Position numbers and translations under genes: made by a program. 64,000 nt of DNA from a virus. Numbering within the stretch: the stretch's first letter is position 1; every line of letters begins with the position of its first letter. Positions 30,101 through 58,889 of the stretch are shown here, piece by piece. The stretch lies in IMG/VR virus record IMGVR_UViG_3300008265_000001; one strand, given 5' to 3'. A model generated the notes under the pieces. That model ran no database searches, was not told where the DNA came from, and saw nothing but the letters and a program-made list of their open reading frames with translations.

Positions 30101-32014
30101 CGCTTTTACCGTAATGGACTGCGTATCGGGCTTGTAGAATCTTCCACAGTACTAAATATCTCAAGTGGAGCGCTCAAAGTTGGTTACTATGAGAATAGGG
30201 TTACCCAAGCCCCTTATTTTCTGTCGAACTTACGCTTGACTGTAGGGAAAGCACTCTACACAGCTTACCAACATGATGTACCTCTGATTCCGTACAACCA
30301 AGTGACAAATATCCTTGATGTTAGCGAACTGCTTGACTACATTTCGCTAGTGTCGGACAACAATGTGCCAAATAAGGCTATCAACGGCAATACGCTGTCG
30401 CTTACCTTCAACAGTATCATCGCACTTACTAACTTGCCTGTAGTGACAATTTTAGGGCAAGCTGCAACTGTTACCAACACCATTTACAATACTTATGTCG
30501 CCACACTTCTAGTAGACGAGACAATTGACCAACAAGTATATTTCAACATTGCTATTCACGATGAGCCAAGCCTACCTAACAAGGATTTTAGCGCGACTAC
30601 TAACGGAACTTCAGTATTTGTTGAGAATAGCCCTTTTACTATTGTTTTGGCGACTACGCAGCCTAACGATAACAGCTTTAAGCTCTATGCAACTGCCACA
30701 CTCAATAAAGATGCCCCAGCGTTCAGTTTGGTTTCGCTGACACTCACTAATTGTATTGTAGGCGGCTTAACAAAAGCAAGTAATAACAACGTATACACTT
30801 TTGAAGTGCAAGCTCTCACAAGCGGAGATTTTAGCTTAGCAGTTTTGGCTAATGCTGTCAACTCTGCAATTGGAACACCTAATTTAGCGTCAAACACATT
30901 GACTAGGGCTGCTGTAGTTCCCGCTTACCTTCCCGACCCCTACTACAACAATTTGCTGCTCTTCATTCAACCCACTGGAACAAATATTATTGATGAGAGC
31001 CAATACGAATGCTCAATTGCAGTAAACAATGTGACCGTAGTAAATGATACTTTCCCTACGGGTTTGCTTAAATCGATGAAGTTTTCAGGTCAGGGTTCAA
31101 GTTTGGTAGCGACACTGAATCAGCCCCTATCAGCCAATCAGGATTATTGCATCGAGTTCTATATCTATCTGTCATCGCTGACCACATTCTCTCTTTCTGC
31201 CCCTATTGCAAGTCCTGCATCGTCGGTTACACCAACTTCATTTGATATTAGTTGGAGTGATGTTGCTGGAGCTACTGATTATGTAGTTGACATCTCAAAT
31301 ACGAGTGATTTTTCTAGGAAAGTGGATGGATTCGATAATAAGTTGGTCGGTGATGTAAATAGTGTCTCAGTTACTAGCAATTCAGCATTGGAATCACCTA
31401 TTGTAGAACTCAATAGAGTTAAGGCAGAAAAAGGATTTGTTGCGGAATGGGGAAAAAGAGCTGGAAGTATAGGATATCGCGTAGTAACTTCTCTCAGTAA
31501 TACATTCAATAGTGCTATTTCTTCTGTTTTTACAAAAAGTAACAATGTGTCAGTGGGAGATTTAACAGATTCATTTGAATATGTGCCAGAATCTGTAGTA
31601 ATCGATGGGGGCTCTTCAAGTGGTTCTTTTTCCTCTAATAGCATCCTTCAAGGCATTCTCTCGTCGGGTTCTAATTCACCAAAAATCTTTGCCTTTAATG
31701 ACGAAAATACAATTCGCTGTTACAAATCACAACCAAACTATACAAGTCCGATGGTAGCTGAAGACATTGAATCAAAACAATGGTTCCATTTGAGTATGGT
31801 TAACTCCTCAGCTACAAAATCTACAAAATTATACCTAGATGGTATTTTGGTTGATAAGCTCAAGAATAGTGATATGGGTTGGGATTCCACCCTAAATTTA
31901 GGCTATGCCATAACCAATTTTAGCGGTTACATAACTGGATTCAGGGTCACGTATGGTGTTCAAAGATATCTGATGGAATTTACTCCTCCGACGCTCCCCC
32001 TTCCAAAAAACTAG
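27104..32014 (+). CDS. 1636-aa adhesin-like virion protein with several LamG (Laminin_G_3-like) jelly-roll units and FN3-like units
   Basis: Recurrent W/F-x-H-hydrophobic...L(Y/F)(V/L)(D/N)G motifs (THFAVSREENNLYFYVNG, PHFAITKKGNVYRFYRNG, QWFHLSMV...KLYLDG). FN3-like PTSFDISWSDVAGATDYVVDIS. Confidence 0.65.
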   Translation: MEGKTLAKYLASADATNSVVEDVYFNDVILLISGNAADNSRGLPFSRDYSRYQRHVKNYTGTNTESSINYPINDIPSLAGVTSCLYIPNYLNRINRAAELNTGQNVSNVLPTYADIQLSGWSDGFSLGTGNFTIELSFFTDNIVPIQTIFSVNTCLNSNVFNPSQLPALGATGGYGLFLVNSDLYFSAKGASFKINNSPIVTGTFYTVCIQRIGNTLQTFLNFLETHVSACNFNLAHSVANNIDTRDYRLFLGISPFFSSFGNQVTNLIDASFSGGISNFRITENIARYPSTFYSVTLPFPKSGIANRIDPNYSDTLFNFPLQFDAYNYASNLKRLASPTLRQNTPNFNTGFLELDGNTTYVSEQITTNLSTSTWTLELYLGLFENSAPLTTAKTLLDWLANNLSNTEGVEKVNLLKLTSNGKLVASIDFNFYADYAGQGGFARTAPYISFSVSEDGTTWRSFASETNNSVNPTYPTTNYFLPSSDIIFYHNASITSNITTSTTAIASPFSEPNTHFAVSREENNLYFYVNGVLVKTVAYSGTLYQESAKLELNFGSLYTPWVSSNASSKRSLGVKGLRVTNTARFISTTVPNDYFYSHCLQPLPTTTGVLTHPKARILAIVPVINNPSISTGTCQWYVYVAQAFDSFVLADFSLTQIEGVSGASLVSLVKNNELEYVVTANTGTGNGKLTLNFVDRRTVKYKGTNTLISNYTGELSFTGQTYVINKNAPIPTITSGSSPYINESFTCTLTWDAAIITFDITKVGVSNGVLSNLVLINEITQTYQFNVTPEKQGVVYVQALEGAGVTDGAISSSKSNLLARVYAEAFPILQLPLDLSNTFYDVSPNQYQLDEIIPNNTLFSSTVFPIGTNSSLAVVPQLEQSGLTYDNFEAIGQGSSLVMNGDWTIEFHYRGNTFNPQNTTHLFSVEKEGTGFAILAVNGNIQVVRSIDLTSNLFPAVTLRESDIFSSGAPIYPAYENGAYTLQQKFPHFAITKKGNVYRFYRNGLRIGLVESSTVLNISSGALKVGYYENRVTQAPYFLSNLRLTVGKALYTAYQHDVPLIPYNQVTNILDVSELLDYISLVSDNNVPNKAINGNTLSLTFNSIIALTNLPVVTILGQAATVTNTIYNTYVATLLVDETIDQQVYFNIAIHDEPSLPNKDFSATTNGTSVFVENSPFTIVLATTQPNDNSFKLYATATLNKDAPAFSLVSLTLTNCIVGGLTKASNNNVYTFEVQALTSGDFSLAVLANAVNSAIGTPNLASNTLTRAAVVPAYLPDPYYNNLLLFIQPTGTNIIDESQYECSIAVNNVTVVNDTFPTGLLKSMKFSGQGSSLVATLNQPLSANQDYCIEFYIYLSSLTTFSLSAPIASPASSVTPTSFDISWSDVAGATDYVVDISNTSDFSRKVDGFDNKLVGDVNSVSVTSNSALESPIVELNRVKAEKGFVAEWGKRAGSIGYRVVTSLSNTFNSAISSVFTKSNNVSVGDLTDSFEYVPESVVIDGGSSSGSFSSNSILQGILSSGSNSPKIFAFNDENTIRCYKSQPNYTSPMVAEDIESKQWFHLSMVNSSATKSTKLYLDGILVDKLKNSDMGWDSTLNLGYAITNFSGYITGFRVTYGVQRYLMEFTPPTLPLPKN

Positions 32015-32876
32015 TAATTTCTTCCTCAGTAGCAAAACGCCACCCTAACCATTCAGGTTCACAACTTTTAAATCTTCTTTGAGCGGTAATGAGAGCTATT
32101 TTTTGAAATCGGGCAGCTTGAGAAATTGATATATAATATTTATCGTCTATTATTACAGGTTTGCTATTAGGAGAAGCTGCCCTCATGTTAGTTTTAGCTT
32201 CTTCTGTAACAATTTTCCCTTTGGCTGACGCACTCATTTTTGCTCTGGTTTCAGGTGAGAATACCCTTCCTTTACCCGCAGCGCTTATTTTGTCTCTAGT
32301 TTCTTTACTACAATTTTTACTATTAATACTAATTTTAGCTTTAGCCTCTTCAGTATGACGATAACCAAGACCATTAGTATTACCTTTACAAGAAATACTT
32401 CTTTTGGCTCTGGTTTCAGGTGATTGTACCTTACCTTTCAGTGAGTTACTTATTTTTTCACGTGTTTGAATATCACGTTCTTTCCCTTTTTTAGCAGCCG
32501 CAATCTTAGCTTTGGTTTCTTGTGTAATAACCTTACCTTTGTTAAAAGCACTAATTTTTGCCTTATGCTCTTCTGTAAGAGCTAAGCCTTTACATCCCCT
32601 TCCACCAATTTTCATATTGTAGATATCTTCACGGCTTATAAACTCTTTATTGACCATCTCTTCTTCAGCTTCATAAGCATCATCGGCGCAGCTAAATTCA
32701 GCTAACGTAGCTCTAGTAAAATTTTCTCTGCCATGTTTATTGATTGCCGCACGTAGACCGTCACCACTACCTAAATATTTCCTAGATTTTGCAGTATTGG
32801 CAACTTTATGTACCCCAACATAAATCTTGCCATTCAACAAATTCGTAGTTTTATACAAAATCCAAGTGTCAGCCAT
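31980..32876 (-). CDS. GIY-YIG homing endonuclease with about 8 NUMOD3 repeats (copy 1)
   Basis: MADTWILYKTTN..NGKIYVGVH...R...H; repeats of x(T/S)(E/P)E(T/H)(K/R)AKIS...KGK. Start moved to the ATG at 32876. The 3' end overlaps 27104..32014 by 35 nt. Confidence 0.8.
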   Translation of the reverse strand: MADTWILYKTTNLLNGKIYVGVHKVANTAKSRKYLGSGDGLRAAINKHGRENFTRATLAEFSCADDAYEAEEEMVNKEFISREDIYNMKIGGRGCKGLALTEEHKAKISAFNKGKVITQETKAKIAAAKKGKERDIQTREKISNSLKGKVQSPETRAKRSISCKGNTNGLGYRHTEEAKAKISINSKNCSKETRDKISAAGKGRVFSPETRAKMSASAKGKIVTEEAKTNMRAASPNSKPVIIDDKYYISISQAARFQKIALITAQRRFKSCEPEWLGWRFATEEEITSFLEGGASEE

Positions 32877-32893
32877 TGCAAATATCCCATATC

Positions 32894-32918
32894 CATGTAT
32901 AATAAATACAGTATAACA
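32894..32918. promoter_or_regulatory. 25-nt conserved core CATGTATAATAAATACAGTATAACA holding back-to-back -10 boxes (TATAAT towards RHH, TGTTATACT towards GIY-YIG)
   Basis: Identical 25-mer, reverse-complemented, at 37405..37429. Confidence 0.55.
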
Positions 32919-32932
32919 CACGTGAGTACAAA

Positions 32933-33085
32933 ATGCGTCCTGATAAAAGCAAAAGATTAAATGCGAAATTGTCCGTAAAAAGACATGAAAAGTTGATGAA
33001 ATATGCCGAGTCGCAAGATAAGGATATGACATCAGCTATAGAGTGCTGGATTGATAGTCTTCCAGAAGTCCAAGTGTTAAACTAA
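32933..33085 (+). CDS. 50-aa ribbon-helix-helix (CopG/Arc-like) protein, copy 1; not in the supplied track
   Basis: MRPDKSKRLNAKLSVKRHEKLMKYAESQDKDMTSAIECWIDSLPEVQVLN has a beta-helix-helix pattern. A paralog of the same length lies at 37235..37387. Confidence 0.55.
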   Translation: MRPDKSKRLNAKLSVKRHEKLMKYAESQDKDMTSAIECWIDSLPEVQVLN

Positions 33086-33577: not shown

Positions 33578-35512
33578 ATGGGGAAATTTGTCAAACGTGA
33601 GAACAATGGGCGCGTATTCCTAAAAGACTCGCAAACAGATGAGTGGTTACTTATATCGAACCAATCGACCGTAGACACAAAAGTACAAACGAGAACGAAA
33701 CAAAGAACCAGTAAGGAATCCCTCTTTAAACTTGTTACAGTAAAAAGATTAGAAGGTATTTCTTTAGAAACTATCACTTCTCGACTAAGAACTTCTCAAG
33801 CCAACTTAGAAAGAGCTGCTGTATTAGCCCAATTTCCTATTCCAGCGCCTGTTAAGTTCCCAGAAACAGATGAGGATGCTATAAACTATTTCTCTGTTTT
33901 TATTGATGAAGATTTGAGGGGTAGTAATGAGCCAATCTTCACTTTTTTCTCTTCTAGCTACCAAACACAAATCCGCGCCTATGTTAGCGCCAATTCTGCC
34001 AATCGTGGTGGTTGGAGTGTTCACTTAGCTTATGTCAAATCGGTTAAAGACAAGCAAGATGGGCTTAAAGAAATCGACTGGACTTTGGTTAGCATCGATA
34101 ACGCAGATATAGCCCCTTATGGTGGTTCTACGCCTATAACAGAGCGTCAGACATACCAACTAGACCTAGATGCCACTGGATTGCCTCGGTGCTTCAAGTC
34201 AAACTTCTCACTCGATAATTTGACTTATCTTGGTGGAGGTATATGGTCATGCCTAGTTATCGACCCAGAAGACCGCATACCTGTTTACGGTGTAGCTTCC
34301 ACCAGCGATACCCGCTATAAACGTATTTCTAATGGTGTAGGAGGGAACTCGGTCACTGTGACATCATATAGTGTCACTCCAACATACTCTTTTACGTGGT
34401 GTCGTGGTCAGTCAGTACTTAGAAAGCGTACTCGTAGTGCAGCAGTTGAGTTTGACCAAGAAGCATTTGATGACAGCGCTGTGCTTGTGCAGAAAAGGAA
34501 ATCATTCTACTCTCTTGACCTAACTTTGCGTCCTGAAATGTCGAGCAATCAATTGGTGCAAAAGACAATCACTGAAGTATGCAACTCAGAGGCTACTTAT
34601 GTCGGTAACACCAATTATTTTCTGTTCTCTCCAAGGCAGTCGCCCGATTATGGGACAGATTTAGCTCGATTCAGCTTACAAAAATATCAGCAGCAGTCTA
34701 ACGTCATTCGTCCTAATGCTTGGGGTGTTTTGGCAGCATCTAAGGAAGGCTCATTGCTTTTGCACCTCGATATGGGCATGGCAGAAGGAAAAATCGAGCA
34801 TCCTTACGAAATCAAGAGTACGGTTGGCAAAAGAGGTGTTAGTTACGAGTGGCAATACAAAAGTTGGTGGGCATACGGGAAAATTCAGGATTATTACCCA
34901 TTAACTAAAAATCAGTATACCTATTTTGTCAGTCGAACATTTGGCACTGAGGTTCCTTCGACTTTATTTGTTGATGGTAGTGCGCCTTATGGAGCTTTGA
35001 TAAAAACTGCGCCAAATCAAGTACAAACTACTTGGGATGCACCGCCTTTGCCTGAGACTGGCTATTTTCCGATTCGTCGAGGAGAATTTAGCTTCGTGTT
35101 GCGGTATTCGATGCCACCATTCTTTTCGCACGAAGGTTGTTACTACTATCAAGTCAATCCAGAGCGTATAGGCTCAAGCTCGTCATCTGGTGACAGGGTT
35201 TACGATAATAGTGTTGCACCAGCACAGCCTAGCTTCAGTCTAGCGCCATCTTTCAGTTCACAAGATGATACTAACCCAAATTCCAAGCAAAACGGCTATA
35301 TAGCTACATACACGCAAATTTTAGGGGCTTTAGATGGTGCAAGTGTTAGTAGCTTCAATATTGGATATAGACCGATTGCTGCAAGTGATACTGAGTCGAT
35401 TTTGGTACTTTCACCTAATCCAGAGCAGAAGTTGAGATTGAGCCAAGAGCCATCGTTATTTCCTAATGCTTTTATAGGAAGTGTAAATGAGAATATTGTA
35501 ATTAATGATTAA
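33578..35512 (+). CDS. hypothetical large protein
   Basis: 644-aa ORF; no motif recognised. Confidence 0.55.
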   Translation: MGKFVKRENNGRVFLKDSQTDEWLLISNQSTVDTKVQTRTKQRTSKESLFKLVTVKRLEGISLETITSRLRTSQANLERAAVLAQFPIPAPVKFPETDEDAINYFSVFIDEDLRGSNEPIFTFFSSSYQTQIRAYVSANSANRGGWSVHLAYVKSVKDKQDGLKEIDWTLVSIDNADIAPYGGSTPITERQTYQLDLDATGLPRCFKSNFSLDNLTYLGGGIWSCLVIDPEDRIPVYGVASTSDTRYKRISNGVGGNSVTVTSYSVTPTYSFTWCRGQSVLRKRTRSAAVEFDQEAFDDSAVLVQKRKSFYSLDLTLRPEMSSNQLVQKTITEVCNSEATYVGNTNYFLFSPRQSPDYGTDLARFSLQKYQQQSNVIRPNAWGVLAASKEGSLLLHLDMGMAEGKIEHPYEIKSTVGKRGVSYEWQYKSWWAYGKIQDYYPLTKNQYTYFVSRTFGTEVPSTLFVDGSAPYGALIKTAPNQVQTTWDAPPLPETGYFPIRRGEFSFVLRYSMPPFFSHEGCYYYQVNPERIGSSSSSGDRVYDNSVAPAQPSFSLAPSFSSQDDTNPNSKQNGYIATYTQILGALDGASVSSFNIGYRPIAASDTESILVLSPNPEQKLRLSQEPSLFPNAFIGSVNENIVIND

Positions 35513-35582
35513 GCGGTTGAGGAATTACGATATCCTGACTCCTACTTGGAAGGTAGGCATATTTCCTCTATACTACAACCGC
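35512..35582 (-). tRNA. tRNA-Gly(UCC)-like gene with a non-canonical T-loop
   Basis: Minus strand: GCGGTTG-TA-GTAT-AGAGGAA-ATAT-G-CCTAC-CTTCCAA-GTAGG-AGTC-AGGAT-ATCGTAA-TTCCT-CAACCGC-T. Perfect 7-bp acceptor and 5-bp anticodon stems. U8, A14, G18G19, A21, U33, A37, C48 and U73 are present. The T-loop is ATCGTAA rather than TTCRANY and 53:61 is T.T. Confidence 0.55.
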
Positions 35583-35698
35583 ATGAACACCAATATTAGC
35601 TTCCGTCTCCACCTGTGGTAGCCTAGCCTTTATGCGGCTAGACGCAGCGTTGAAACTGCCACTTTCACTAAGCAATCCGAGACACTCGGAAGGGTGTA

Positions 35699-35778
35699 AG
35701 CCAGTCGCGGGAATCGAACAAACCGCTATCTGTTGGTTATGAGCCAACCGTGATTATTATCCATGTCACTCCACTGGC
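35699..35778 (-). tRNA. tRNA-like element with a CAU anticodon (Met or Ile2), aberrant T-stem; possibly a pseudo-tRNA
   Basis: Minus strand: GCCAGTG-GA-GTGA-CATGGATAATAA-TCAC-G-GTTGG-CTCATAA-CCAAC-AGATA-GCGG(TTT)G-TTCGATT-CCCGC-GACTGGC-T. Canonical anticodon and T loops, but a 3-nt bulge in the T-stem, G8, a 7:66 G.G pair and a 12-nt D-loop. Confidence 0.35.
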
Positions 35779-35827
35779 ATTTATTAATATAACACAATAT
35801 TATTGACTTACATATCTATCTTAAGGA

Positions 35828-36244
35828 CTATTCTGCAAATTCTCCATATTTCAAGTATTTTTCCAAAGCTTTGTGTGAGGCAATATATTCTTTACGCAAT
35901 CGATGAAACTGTTTGTCAGCAATCTCGTTGAAATGACTATAACAAAGGAAGCAGTAGCTAAATCCCTCGTTGTCGATACGGTCGTGAAGTGCTTGCAAAT
36001 CTTCGTCACTAAGGTTGATACTAGTAGATTCCACAAGCTCTACAGTATTAACATTTAGTCTTGCAGGAGTAGTTTCACCGTTAACCCAATATACTTCAAA
36101 ATGACCACCAGCTAAATTAGCTTCATCGTAGTCAGATACTGTACCAACTGTACCTGACGGAATTAAAGCTTCACCGTAGACTATTTGTGCAATAGCTACA
36201 ACTTTGTCGCCTCTGTTTATTGACATATTATCTCCAAGGAACAA
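35828..36244 (-). CDS. hypothetical protein (likely start at the MSINRGDKV ATG, 36226)
   Basis: 138-aa ORF in the minus-strand operon. Confidence 0.5.
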   Translation of the reverse strand: MFLGDNMSINRGDKVVAIAQIVYGEALIPSGTVGTVSDYDEANLAGGHFEVYWVNGETTPARLNVNTVELVESTSINLSDEDLQALHDRIDNEGFSYCFLCYSHFNEIADKQFHRLRKEYIASHKALEKYLKYGEFAE

Positions 36245-37235: not shown

Positions 37236-37387
37236 TATTTTGCTGTTGTGTCAGGTAAAGAGTCAATCCAATCCTCAAAAAGACAGGTCATCTTTTTTTG
37301 GCGGGAGTCAGCATAGTTCTTGAATTTATCCATGCGCTTCTCAGATATAACCGCATTAAATCTTTTGCTTTTATCGATATTGCTCAT
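37235..37387 (-). CDS. 50-aa ribbon-helix-helix protein, copy 2; not in the supplied track
   Basis: MSNIDKSKRFNAVISEKRMDKFKNYADSRQKKMTCLFEDWIDSLPDTTAK. Shares DKSKR(L/F)NA and (C/D)WIDSLP with copy 1, plus a 17-nt identical stretch GATAAAAGCAAAAGATT. Confidence 0.55.
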   Translation of the reverse strand: MSNIDKSKRFNAVISEKRMDKFKNYADSRQKKMTCLFEDWIDSLPDTTAK

Positions 37388-37404
37388 TGTTTATGTTTTT
37401 TATA

Positions 37405-37429
37405 TGTTATACTGTATTTATTATACATG
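37405..37429. promoter_or_regulatory. second copy of the 25-nt back-to-back promoter core (TGTTATACTGTATTTATTATACATG)
   Basis: Exact reverse complement of 32894..32918. Confidence 0.55.
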
Positions 37430-37447
37430 AAAGGATGGGTATGTGCA

Positions 37448-38224
37448 ATGGCTGAGACTTGGATATTATATCGAACTACGAATTTGTTGAATGGCAAGAT
37501 TTATGTTGGGGTACATAAAGTATCTGATACCAAGCACTCAAGACGTTATTTAGGTAGCGGAACAATTCTAAAGCCAGCTATTGAAAAATACGGCAGGAAA
37601 AATTTTACTAGGACTACATTGGCAGAATTTAATAATTGTAAAGATGCCTATAAAGCTGAAGCAGAAATGGTTAATGAGGAGTTCCTTAAACGCACTGATA
37701 TTTACAATGTAAAACTGGGAGGGGAGGGTAGTGTAGGCTTTAAACCTACCGAGCAGACTAAAATAAAGATGAGTATTGCAAACAGAGGGAGAGTTGCTAA
37801 CGAAGAACAAAAGCTAAATTACAGCAGAGGTCAACTTGGTAATAAAAAATGGTTAGGTAAACACCATACGGAGGAGTCTAAAGCGAAAATCAGTGCTGCT
37901 AACAAGGGACATACACGCACTGTAGGTAAAATTTTAACTCCAGAAAATAAAGCTAAACTAATAGCTTCAAATATAGGTAGGGTTAAATCCAAAGAAGAGA
38001 TTGAAAAACTCAGGGTAGCTAATAGCGGAGCAAATAACTCTGGAAGTATAGCAGTTGTGATAAATGGGGTATATTATCCTACAAAAAAATTTGCAGCCGA
38101 AGGGGAAAAAGTAGTTCCAGCTACTGTATCGGACAGAATTAAAAGTCCTAAGTCGAAATGGGATGGTTGGAGACTGGCTACTGATGAAGAAAAATCTATC
38201 TATGGTTCTAGTACGCTAGAATAG
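37448..38224 (+). CDS. GIY-YIG homing endonuclease with NUMOD3 repeats (copy 2)
   Basis: MAETWILYRTTN..NGKIYVGVH. A 48-nt stretch (37474..37521) is identical to copy 1 (32803..32850, minus strand). Start moved to the ATG at 37448. Confidence 0.8.
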   Translation: MAETWILYRTTNLLNGKIYVGVHKVSDTKHSRRYLGSGTILKPAIEKYGRKNFTRTTLAEFNNCKDAYKAEAEMVNEEFLKRTDIYNVKLGGEGSVGFKPTEQTKIKMSIANRGRVANEEQKLNYSRGQLGNKKWLGKHHTEESKAKISAANKGHTRTVGKILTPENKAKLIASNIGRVKSKEEIEKLRVANSGANNSGSIAVVINGVYYPTKKFAAEGEKVVPATVSDRIKSPKSKWDGWRLATDEEKSIYGSSTLE

Positions 38225-58409: not shown

Positions 58410-58889
58410 TTACACCTTAATTGCTACTTCATAGGTCGCTTCAGGCTCAGGCAGTGCCGCAACACGTTGTTTGAAGTCGAACTCCATGAACTCAATCTCT
58501 TCGTTGGTTTGGAGCGCTGCAATCTTTTGTTGGAATAGTTCAATCTGTTTTTGCAACTTTTGAACTTCGCCTTCATTAGCTGCAATCAAATCAGTTCTAG
58601 CCCCATCAATGTTGTTTGCCAGTTCAAGTAGCTCGTCGGTTAGCACGATTTTGCCAGCCTTGCGCTTGACTTGAATGCTCGATTTGCCCAGCTTCGCGAT
58701 TGTGCCAGTTTTCGCTACGTCAAAGCGTTTTGTGAAGAGTTCTGTCACTTTTACCTTTACGTCTTTCAACTCGGCTTGGACGCTCTTTTCTTGGCTGCTG
58801 AGATTGATTGCAGAAAGGAGTAACTCGTTCTCTTCTGGTGAAAGTTCGGTGGTGGCGTTAGATACAGCGAGAATTTGTGGTGCAGTCAT
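58410..58889 (-). CDS. coiled-coil hypothetical protein
   Basis: 159-aa ORF. Confidence 0.5.
   Translation of the reverse strand: MTAPQILAVSNATTELSPEENELLLSAINLSSQEKSVQAELKDVKVKVTELFTKRFDVAKTGTIAKLGKSSIQVKRKAGKIVLTDELLELANNIDGARTDLIAANEGEVQKLQKQIELFQQKIAALQTNEEIEFMEFDFKQRVAALPEPEATYEVAIKV

Follow-up and report, generated by a model that had tools for sequence, protein, structure and literature searches.

The tRNA cluster of bacteriophage T4 reads A-ending codons (Gly UCC, Arg UCU, Pro UGG, Thr UGU, Ser UGA, and Gln UUG) and includes an Ile tRNA with the anticodon CAU, which reads AUA. It also contains two small stable RNAs (species 1 and 2, rnaC/rnaD), which are co-transcribed and freed by tRNA-processing enzymes and whose function is not known. 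In gut phages, theta ribozymes, which are minimal ribozymes of the hepatitis delta virus (HDV)-like kind, lie next to phage tRNAs, often tRNA-Met (PMC10879173). Among the phages of cyanobacteria, Pseudanabaena phage Pam2 (ON014754) carries four annotated tRNAs in the order Gly-Asn-Lys-Arg, and in Pseudanabaena phage PA-SR01 (MT234670), tRNAscan-SE 2.0 called a tRNA-Met(CAT) at 58579..58502 (PMC10286775, Table 2). Here we describe a gap between two open reading frames (ORFs) in a stretch of viral DNA of 64,000 nucleotides (nt) (IMG/VR record IMGVR_UViG_3300008265_000001; the whole stretch is termed the window herein). We consider it likely that this gap forms a tRNA operon that is self-contained and belongs to a Pseudanabaena-type siphovirus with Pam2 and PA-SR01 as relatives. 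It contains three elements.

35698..35779, minus strand: atypical tRNA(CAU) gene, recognized by a family model and by syntenic, covarying homologues (the core given by the initial annotation was 35778..35699)
35586..35697, minus strand: element A, a conserved structured RNA, recognized by alignment A3, a consensus fold, and model R2
35512..35582, minus strand: tRNA-Gly(UCC) with U53.U61 and the T loop AUCGUAA (A54/U58), recognized by ARAGORN, RF00005, and orthologues in Pam2 and in the relative L036

The locus resembles the T4 cluster in its organization, with readers of A-ending codons next to structured non-tRNA RNAs. It differs in that the host of T4 is Escherichia coli and not a cyanobacterium and in that element A is accessory within its own phage group.

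A tRNA array at the same position in related phages

The gap (35513..35827, 315 nt) lies between a 138-amino-acid (aa) ORF and a convergent 644-aa ORF, neither of which matched a family in Pfam searches.

33578..35512, plus strand: 644-aa ORF, convergent, bordering the array and used as synteny anchor
35828..36244, minus strand: 138-aa ORF, the upstream border of the array, with its stop codon at 35830..35828

The C-terminal part of the 644-aa ORF matches Pam2 and PA-SR01, and the syntenic gap between the homologues of this ORF and of the upstream ORF holds tRNA arrays in both phages and in relatives from IMG/VR. ARAGORN reads the PA-SR01 array as Asp(AUC)-Gly-Arg. Protein-anchored and pattern scans of IMG/VR, a metagenome collection, and a genome collection yielded eight more array types (relatives are referred to by L numbers, L002 being PA-SR01); the metagenome scan with the 644-aa protein gave two loci only, one of them useful. 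The content of the arrays varies, with Thr, Pro, Gln, Ser, Tyr, Ile, Asp, and Glu genes found among the relatives. In five complete or nearly complete relatives, all tRNA-model matches fall into a single array, apart from one extra locus in the L008 genome.

In the window, the G+C content of the gap is 0.455 to 0.475, compared to 0.36 to 0.38 in the immediate flanks and 0.409 for the window as a whole. A single 59-aa ORF with a TTG start crosses the gap and was judged to be spurious. The GC-richer gap of 315 nt and the two cloverleaves within it, on which the initial annotation was built, are all present in the sequence at the positions that it gave.

The CAU genes form a family selected for a tRNA-like fold

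In all 11 array types, a CAU gene with the anticodon loop YU-CAU-AM stands first after the motif TG[T/C]TATATT. The gene is atypical in 10 of them (nine distinct sequences) and canonical in one (L036/L037), and in the four contigs L003 to L006, it is the sole tRNA-like gene. The genes are about 60% identical across the family, and the loop pattern is invariant (U33, purine 37).

Base pairs were counted across the nine atypical variants. When all CAU variants were aligned with MAFFT, the acceptor strands ended up in the wrong place, and explicitly extracted segments were used for the counts instead; the model-fitted alignment A8, which mixes in other tRNAs, was left out. The 6-bp acceptor core is Watson-Crick paired in 54 of 54 cells, with five sequence types. 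In the anticodon stem, 40 of 45 cells are Watson-Crick pairs, one is G.U, and four are U.U, with at least two pair types at every position, and in the five variants with an unbulged T stem, all 25 cells of that stem are paired (four sequence types). Acceptor core, D stem, anticodon stem, and T stem, i.e., the four helices of a tRNA, all covary across the nine variants. The Pam2 and L007 copies are set apart in the acceptor and anticodon stems by four double changes, all of them compensated, with not one disruptive change. Compared to L038, its closest relative, the window copy has three double changes in its anticodon stem, and in the lower T stem, a G-C pair has replaced an A-U.

The cloverleaf of the window copy can be drawn as the initial annotation described it (35778..35699, with the loops CTCATAA and TTCGATT, a TTT bulge, and a 12-nt D loop). 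The acceptor helix has the core GCCAGT/ACTGGC with U.U above and G.G below; the latter mismatch (G7.G66) had gone unmentioned. The D stem is GTGA/TCAC with the 12-nt loop, the anticodon stem is GTTGG/CCAAC with the loop CTCATAA, the T loop is TTCGATT, and no CCA is encoded. Instead of a 7-bp acceptor stem and an uninterrupted 5-bp T stem, the copy has six Watson-Crick pairs and a T stem with a 3-nt bulge. An extended T stem in which one to three U residues of the 5' strand bulge out is a trait of the subgroup to which the window copy belongs.

T stem of L038: GCAG-UU-GG / CC-CUGC
T stem of PA-SR01: AUG-UU-GGG / CCC-CAU
T stem of L003: GUA-U-UGG / CCA-UAC
T stem of the window copy: GCGG-UUU-G / C-CCGC, with one inner pair fewer (and a D loop with five extra nt)

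Above the acceptor core, the family always has a weak or mismatched layer (A-U, U.U, U.C, A.G, or A.C), and the layer below the core is usually mismatched (G.G, A.A, G.U, or A.C). When the base before the core is counted as position 1, N-CCA is encoded in register in six of the nine atypical variants, and the published boundaries of the PA-SR01 gene use the same register (PMC10286775). This gene is also the closest described counterpart of the window copy. It is the first gene after the conserved promoter-like motif in the same syntenic gap and has in common with the window copy the GAGTGA D arm, the anticodon loop CTCATAA, an AGATA variable loop, the T loop TTCGAYT, and an extended T stem with a U bulge. 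The sequences of its acceptor and anticodon stems are changed but compensated. Furthermore, its 3' end includes an encoded ACCA, its D loop is 6 nt long, and its bulge comprises 2 nt, whereas the window copy has no CCA, a 12-nt D loop, a 3-nt bulge, and one pair fewer. The Pam2 copy carries no annotation in the GenBank record.

A covariance model built from L038 and L003 only (R1), with the window left out, returned the window copy as its top outside match (58.4 bits; E = 1.3e-14), and the only other match in the window had an E value of 0.44. R1 also recognized PA-SR01 (45.8 bits), the canonical gene of L036 (34.2 bits), L022, L009, and L008 and, weakly, Pam2. With RF00005, the atypical genes of PA-SR01, L003, and the L038 type scored 24.8, 23.6, and 19.3 bits, respectively, and the others gave no match, while the canonical gene of L036/L037 scored 62.6 bits (its best E. 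coli match is metZWV, with 78% identity). On this comparative evidence, the CAU genes, with the window element among them, are a real family in which a tRNA-like fold has been selected.

The initial annotation had recommended relaxed ARAGORN runs and an Infernal search with RF00005. At default settings, ARAGORN does not call the window CAU gene; it calls exactly 35778..35699 only from -ps90, together with three spurious calls inside ORFs, and on simulated 64-kb sequences, which served as a false-call control, -ps80 produced about 25 calls each. The relaxed call was therefore rejected as proof of the gene: on its own, the cloverleaf is no better than chance, and the reality of the element rests on the comparative evidence. 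Infernal matched the Gly gene (46.6 bits) but left the CAU gene unmatched at E values of ≤10.

What the CAU tRNA may decode

The window CAU tRNA is predicted to read either AUG or, after lysidine modification of C34, AUA. The other array members mostly read A-ending codons (anticodons UCC, UCU, UUU, UGU, UGG, UUG, and UGA), a repertoire that fits AUA reading by the CAU gene; the T4 set shows the same preference and contains a CAU tRNA for AUA. AUA reading would depend on recognition by TilS and IleRS. In the long ORFs of the window, AUA makes up 22% of the Ile codons and, at 14.5 per 1,000 codons, is more frequent than AUG (GGA makes up 22% of the Gly codons). On the other side, the canonical L036 counterpart has an initiator-type body, which fits Met; the atypical genes of L009 and L022 keep the D-arm sequence of L036, and the PA-SR01 copy has been typed as Met.

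The L036/L037 gene resembles the E. coli initiator tRNA-fMet (metZWV) in its D arm (UGGAGCAG...GCU, A11:U24) and in the loop CUCAUAA, and Infernal reads it with a paired G1:C72. It differs from the initiator in that the three consecutive G-C pairs of the anticodon stem are missing, as they are from all CAU copies. The window copy has two G-C pairs in this stem (30:40 and 31:39) and U11:A24, and its 1:72 layer is U.U or G-C depending on the register; an initiator function for this copy is not supported by these features.

A second CAU tRNA, called by ARAGORN at default settings and with the T loop TTAGAAT, was observed in the L008 genome (L044:338-409, on the G002 contig of ∼129.7 kb), far from the array and beside a tRNA-like gene with an aberrant anticodon loop (L044:190-262). 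Some relatives therefore bear two CAU species.

A genuine tRNA-Gly with a lineage-specific T arm

At default settings, ARAGORN calls tRNA-Gly(UCC) at 35582..35512 as the sole tRNA in the whole window, and in a search of 901 nt, RF00005 matched it with 46.6 bits (E = 1.2e-8; gathering score, 29). A search of the whole window against Rfam at gathering scores returned nothing, not even this true tRNA, which reflects a loss in the speed filter; searches of short regions were therefore relied on. In the Infernal alignment, the gene has a perfect 7-bp acceptor stem and a 5-bp anticodon stem with the loop CUUCCAA, and its T stem closes with U53.U61 below the loop AUCGUAA. The initial annotation had drawn the same cloverleaf and had pointed out both oddities of the T arm. 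The canonical arrangement, in which G53-C61 closes the stem and a U54-A58 reverse-Hoogsteen pair is formed in a UUCRANN loop, is not present in this gene.

The unusual T arm is conserved. In three lineages (window, Pam2, and L036), the T stems AGGAU/UUCCU, GGGAU/UUCCC, and GAGAU/UUCUC all retain U53.U61 and the loop AUCGUAA, and a 3' remnant of a gene of the same type is kept in L007. The orthologues in L008 and L038, which have the same acceptor stem and D loop, carry the loop UUCAAAA, i.e., U54/A58, again with U53.U61, and a half-swapped form was not seen among the copies compared. The existence of U54/A58 and A54/U58 sets with no half-swapped form supports an inverted tertiary pair, as had been proposed from the window copy alone, and suggests that the lineage-specific T arm keeps the 54-58 interaction in inverted form (A54/U58). 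A literature search for an A54/U58 T loop found no paper describing one.

For bacterial glycine tRNAs, we take the identity set to be G1:C72, C2:G71, G3:C70, U73, C35, and C36. All of these nucleotides are present in the gene according to the sequence and the Infernal alignment. Pam2_tRNA04 is a close counterpart at the same locus, with the UCC anticodon, U53.U61 and AUCGUAA, and a short D loop with AGAGG; its acceptor, anticodon, and outer T-stem sequences are changed with compensation, and it is followed by Asn, Lys, and Arg genes that do not occur in the window. Judged by sequence and alignment, the Gly gene is a genuine tRNA with an unusual but conserved T arm.

Element A is the most conserved element of the region

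The two tRNA genes are separated by 116 nt, which the initial annotation had described as having several hairpins but no cloverleaf. This description holds. The spacer had been treated as filler, yet the 112 nt of element A within it are the most conserved element of the region. Between the upstream tRNA's 3' end and the element lie 0 to 1 nt, and 3 nt separate it from tRNA-Gly. Its seven variants, from seven related contig types, align without insertions or deletions at 92% column identity (alignment A3), and the first 54 positions are almost invariant; in comparison, the flanking 644-aa protein is 65% to 88% identical and the CAU genes are about 60% identical.

The RNAalifold consensus consists of a closing helix (35697..35693 with 35591..35587) around five hairpins, the last of which is followed by an unpaired 3' stretch of 17 nt. 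The hairpins include the invariant CCGAG-UGU-CUCGG, GCAGY-UUCAAY-RCUGC, and a variable but fully compensated 8-bp hairpin (35643..35621). Overall, 98.7% of the cells are paired, compared to ∼37% in slid controls, four pairs are changed on both sides, and the covariation score was reached in 0 of 500 shuffles. With seven close sequences, the covariation backs mainly the hairpins 35643..35621 and GCAGY-UUCAAY-RCUGC; the remaining helices are the same in every copy. All 14 G.U cells are compatible with the strand of the tRNA array and not with the opposite one.

Among the relatives, element A follows CAU, Pro, Tyr, or Ser genes, and what comes after it is a Gly gene, an Ile gene, or a second non-tRNA element. 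With model R2, the window (138.7 bits) and two complete relatives gave one copy each, and Pam2, PA-SR01, and a relative that is 98% complete gave none. Outside the phage group, a scan of the genome collection returned only a mis-binned copy of the L038 array, and a looser pattern scan of IMG/VR was discarded, as its extra matches were chance matches in coding DNA. No family of Rfam 15 matched the copies of the window, L007, L008, L036, and L040 at E values of ≤10. The idea that the element mimics a CRISPR repeat was addressed with the Rfam CRISPR-DR families, none of which matched its 5' part. A coding function was also considered and rejected: there are two open frames, but the substitutions in them are mostly nonsynonymous, and one removes the sole start codon. 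Element A is probably a stable RNA that is released during processing of the tRNAs.

A conserved promoter-like motif and a model for the operon

Two conserved sequences precede the array.

35812..35825, minus strand: conserved block CTTAAGATAGATAT, just past the stop codon of the 138-aa ORF
35786..35796, minus strand: extended −10-like motif TGTGTTATATT (TGn plus TATATT); TG[T/C]TATATT stands before the CAU gene in every related array

The block CTTAAGATAGATAT occurs with two changes at most ahead of the array in the window, Pam2, PA-SR01, L008, L009, L012, L036, and L039; it may serve as an upstream promoter element or be bound by a regulator. From the hexamer of the second motif, it is 6 to 8 nt to the first base of the CAU acceptor helix. 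A simple scan for −35 and −10 boxes does not list this motif because there is no −35 hexamer. We infer that TGnTATATT acts as a promoter. The initial annotation had assigned both tRNA-like elements to the end of an upstream minus-strand operon; they do lie on this strand, but with a conserved extended −10 motif directly ahead of them, they need not depend on that operon.

In the model that we favor, transcription would start from this motif, either at the first gene's 5' end or ∼2 nt away from it at most, and the transcript would consist of three RNAs end to end: the atypical tRNA(CAU), the 112-nt element A, and tRNA-Gly(UCC). Host enzymes would cut this precursor, with RNase P acting at the 5' end of tRNA-Gly and endo- or exonucleases acting behind each tRNA, and since the window encodes no CCA, the host CCA-adding enzyme would finish the 3' ends. 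Element A would thereby be freed as a discrete RNA of ∼115 nt. The tRNA-Gly(UCC) would supply a reader of GGA and GGG; the CAU gene, which is the one constant member of these arrays, would encode a fast-evolving and structurally deviant tRNA; and element A, which is accessory and far more conserved than its neighbors, would be a functional RNA.

At position 35512, tRNA-Gly overlaps the convergent 644-aa ORF: its discriminator (U73) is complementary to the final stop-codon base of that ORF, and the array abuts the convergent ORF equally tightly in Pam2 and PA-SR01. There is therefore no space for a terminator between the array and this ORF.

Points against the operon model and alternative explanations

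Several observations weigh against the model of a self-contained operon that yields working tRNAs and a functional RNA. In the 901-nt search, no family of Rfam matched the window CAU gene at E values of ≤10, and with RF00005, it stays below about 17 bits. Its minimum-energy fold is not the cloverleaf (z = −0.9); across the CAU genes, however, the fold z-scores are unremarkable (−1.4 to +0.5) and the minimum-energy fold is the cloverleaf in some copies only, so that such folding speaks neither for nor against the genes. The window copy, with a single pair above the 3-nt bulge of its T stem and a 12-nt D loop, is the most deviant member of the family. The discriminator varies across the family (U, A, or C), which is unusual for a tRNA charged by a single synthetase, and the atypical genes lack the three G-C pairs of an initiator, several of them having U.U at 30:40. 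As for element A, its absence from Pam2, PA-SR01, and the 98%-complete relative means that it is accessory and dispensable, and the near-identity of its copies between distant phages could reflect recent exchange rather than constraint.

The most serious alternative is that the CAU family is real but the window copy is a recently decaying pseudogene that no longer yields a working tRNA. Compared to L038, G52 has changed to U and one C has been lost from the 3' strand, which leaves a single G-C pair above the UUU bulge; the D loop has five extra nt; and the copy has the lowest tRNA-model score of its subgroup (no RF00005 match, compared to 19.3 bits for the L038 type and 23.6 bits for L003) and is called by ARAGORN only from -ps90. 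Against decay, none of its other stems is broken, the differences from L038 are compensated (three double changes in the anticodon stem and one A-U pair turned into G-C in the lower T stem), and the promoter motif, the anticodon loop, and the T loop are unchanged. Furthermore, every member of the family has a bulge of some kind at this site of the T stem, which the fold therefore tolerates. We regard decay of the window copy as somewhat unlikely. Of the options listed in the initial annotation, functional but unusual tRNAs fit best, on account of the Gly gene and the CAU family, although the window CAU copy itself is less certain. As for decaying tRNAs, the second option, the T-stem bulge is a family trait and not simple decay, but the loss of one T-stem pair and the growth of the D loop by 5 nt in the window copy leave some probability to decay of this particular copy.

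A bolder reading would combine two ideas: element A would represent a new class of structured RNA that cyanophage tRNA operons carry as an accessory and that has an activity of its own, such as that of a ribozyme, a protein sponge, or an anti-defense RNA (a mimic of a CRISPR repeat or of a tRNA-processing substrate), and the constant but fast-changing CAU gene would be an initiator-derived tRNA that each lineage has reshaped to evade host nucleases directed at tRNAs and that is still usable. We hold this combination to be unlikely.

It seems more doubtful that the CAU genes are nontranslational tRNA-like RNAs, e.g., decoys or nuclease-resistant replacements in an arms race with host defenses that target tRNAs. 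Their rapid divergence next to the conserved element A (∼60% compared to 92% identity) would be in line with such a race, as would the rejection of all atypical copies by general tRNA models, the variable discriminator, the always weak or mismatched pair above the acceptor core, and the loss of canonical tertiary partners in several lineages (no D-loop GG together with G55 or U56 in the T loop). However, there is strict conservation of the anticodon loop YU-CAU-AM, six of nine variants encode CCA in register, the position is occupied in one relative by a tRNA(CAU) that is fully canonical (62.6 bits), and no nuclease, defense, or anti-defense gene was linked to the locus in this analysis.

For element A, the alternative is that it serves to free the tRNAs on either side, as a self-cleaving ribozyme or as a processing device of another kind, and is not a stable RNA with its own role; we think this distinctly improbable. 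Its tight fit between the tRNAs (0 to 1 nt from the upstream 3' end and 3 nt before tRNA-Gly) would suit such a device, and a near-invariant junction with one freely covarying peripheral hairpin is typical of catalytic or ligand-binding RNAs. A minimal HDV-like ribozyme is about half the size of element A. The theta ribozymes of gut phages provide a precedent, as structured non-tRNA RNAs within a few nt of the end of a phage tRNA, often tRNA-Met (PMC10879173). They differ from element A, which has no HDV-like double pseudoknot and no match to an Rfam ribozyme family at E values of ≤10 and which occurs in a cyanophage with no sign of recoding. In the HDV-like fold, the 5' strand forms P1 internally, the 3' end is engaged in P2, and J4/2 holds a catalytic C. 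The fold of element A is a nested junction of several hairpins: its extreme 3' end pairs with the 5' strand, and five simple hairpins are enclosed; by eye, this topology has no place for the double pseudoknot. The known small self-cleaving ribozymes were rejected as candidates on these grounds (HDV-like and hammerhead by eye and all Rfam ribozyme families by search). In addition, the arrays of Pam2, PA-SR01, and L009, which have no element A, evidently process the same tRNAs.

The T4 homing endonuclease gene segB sits within the T4 tRNA cluster, and the window contains two ORFs (31980..33032, minus strand, and 37298..38224, plus strand) that match NUMOD3 and, weakly, a SegE-type GIY-YIG domain. 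That the tRNA-like elements are DNA sites, either attachment sites or targets of these flanking endonucleases, is nonetheless very improbable, even though inserted ORFs and truncated or chimeric tRNAs mark the locus as a rearrangement hot spot in related arrays: the endonuclease genes are >1.5 kb from the gap, the arrays occur whether or not a relative has them, the compensatory changes and the restriction of G.U pairs to one strand argue that RNA and not a DNA site is under selection, descriptions of the published relatives call them lytic, and no integrase was seen adjoining the locus (integrases were not specifically examined). Nothing was found in support of the remaining options of the initial annotation, namely, decoys, attachment-type sites, and endonuclease targets.

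Evolution of the array locus

The related arrays contain traces of rearrangement. The Gly remnant of L007 is the 3' half of an AUCGUAA-type gene, located ∼240 to 290 nt beyond the 644-aa ORF; L009:4932-4998 is a Lys/Thr chimera, L040:2520-2560 is a truncated Asn gene, and ORFs are inserted between tRNAs in L007, L012, and L040. By this comparison of arrays, the locus is one that evolves by deletion, recombination, and gene insertion. Individual tRNAs are also unusual: the "tRNA-Asp" of PA-SR01 (L002:5709-5781) has the anticodon AUC and U37 in the loop CTATCTA (L038 has GUC), and C33 replaces U33 in the PA-SR01 Arg(UCU) gene (L002:5927-5998, CCTCTAA) and in a Thr-like gene of L022 (L022:4437-4508, CCTGTAA).

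A second conserved, structured non-tRNA element of ∼125 nt (element B) was observed at approximately L036:2735-2840, L040:2150-2270, and L039:2565-2680, with a remnant at L002:5782-5850; it is not present in the window. Its outer stem is ATAAGAG/CTCTTAT, and its hairpin CTACAT-TACGTGAGT-ATGTAG covaries with TTGCAT/ATGCAA. Rfam gave no match for the L036 and L040 copies. Behind some of the tRNAs of L008, L038/L040, L002, and L039 lies a small hairpin that is conserved, TTGGCTTRATYGCCAA (TTGGCAATCGATTGCCAA in L039); it is likewise not found in the window and may be a processing or termination signal.

Implications

The one tRNA gene that is kept by every phage of the group is missed by standard pipelines, as the CAU gene is generally unseen by ARAGORN at default settings and at the Rfam threshold. 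The tRNA counts of cyanophages may therefore be too low and arguments on codon supply incomplete. The CAU and Gly genes are natural tests of how far a tRNA can deviate, with a 6-bp acceptor core, a bulged T stem, the loss of the D-loop GG, and an inverted 54-58 pair. Element A would be a previously unreported, strongly conserved RNA inside a tRNA operon that resembles the stable RNAs of T4, and since Pseudanabaena phages of the group are in culture, it is directly testable.

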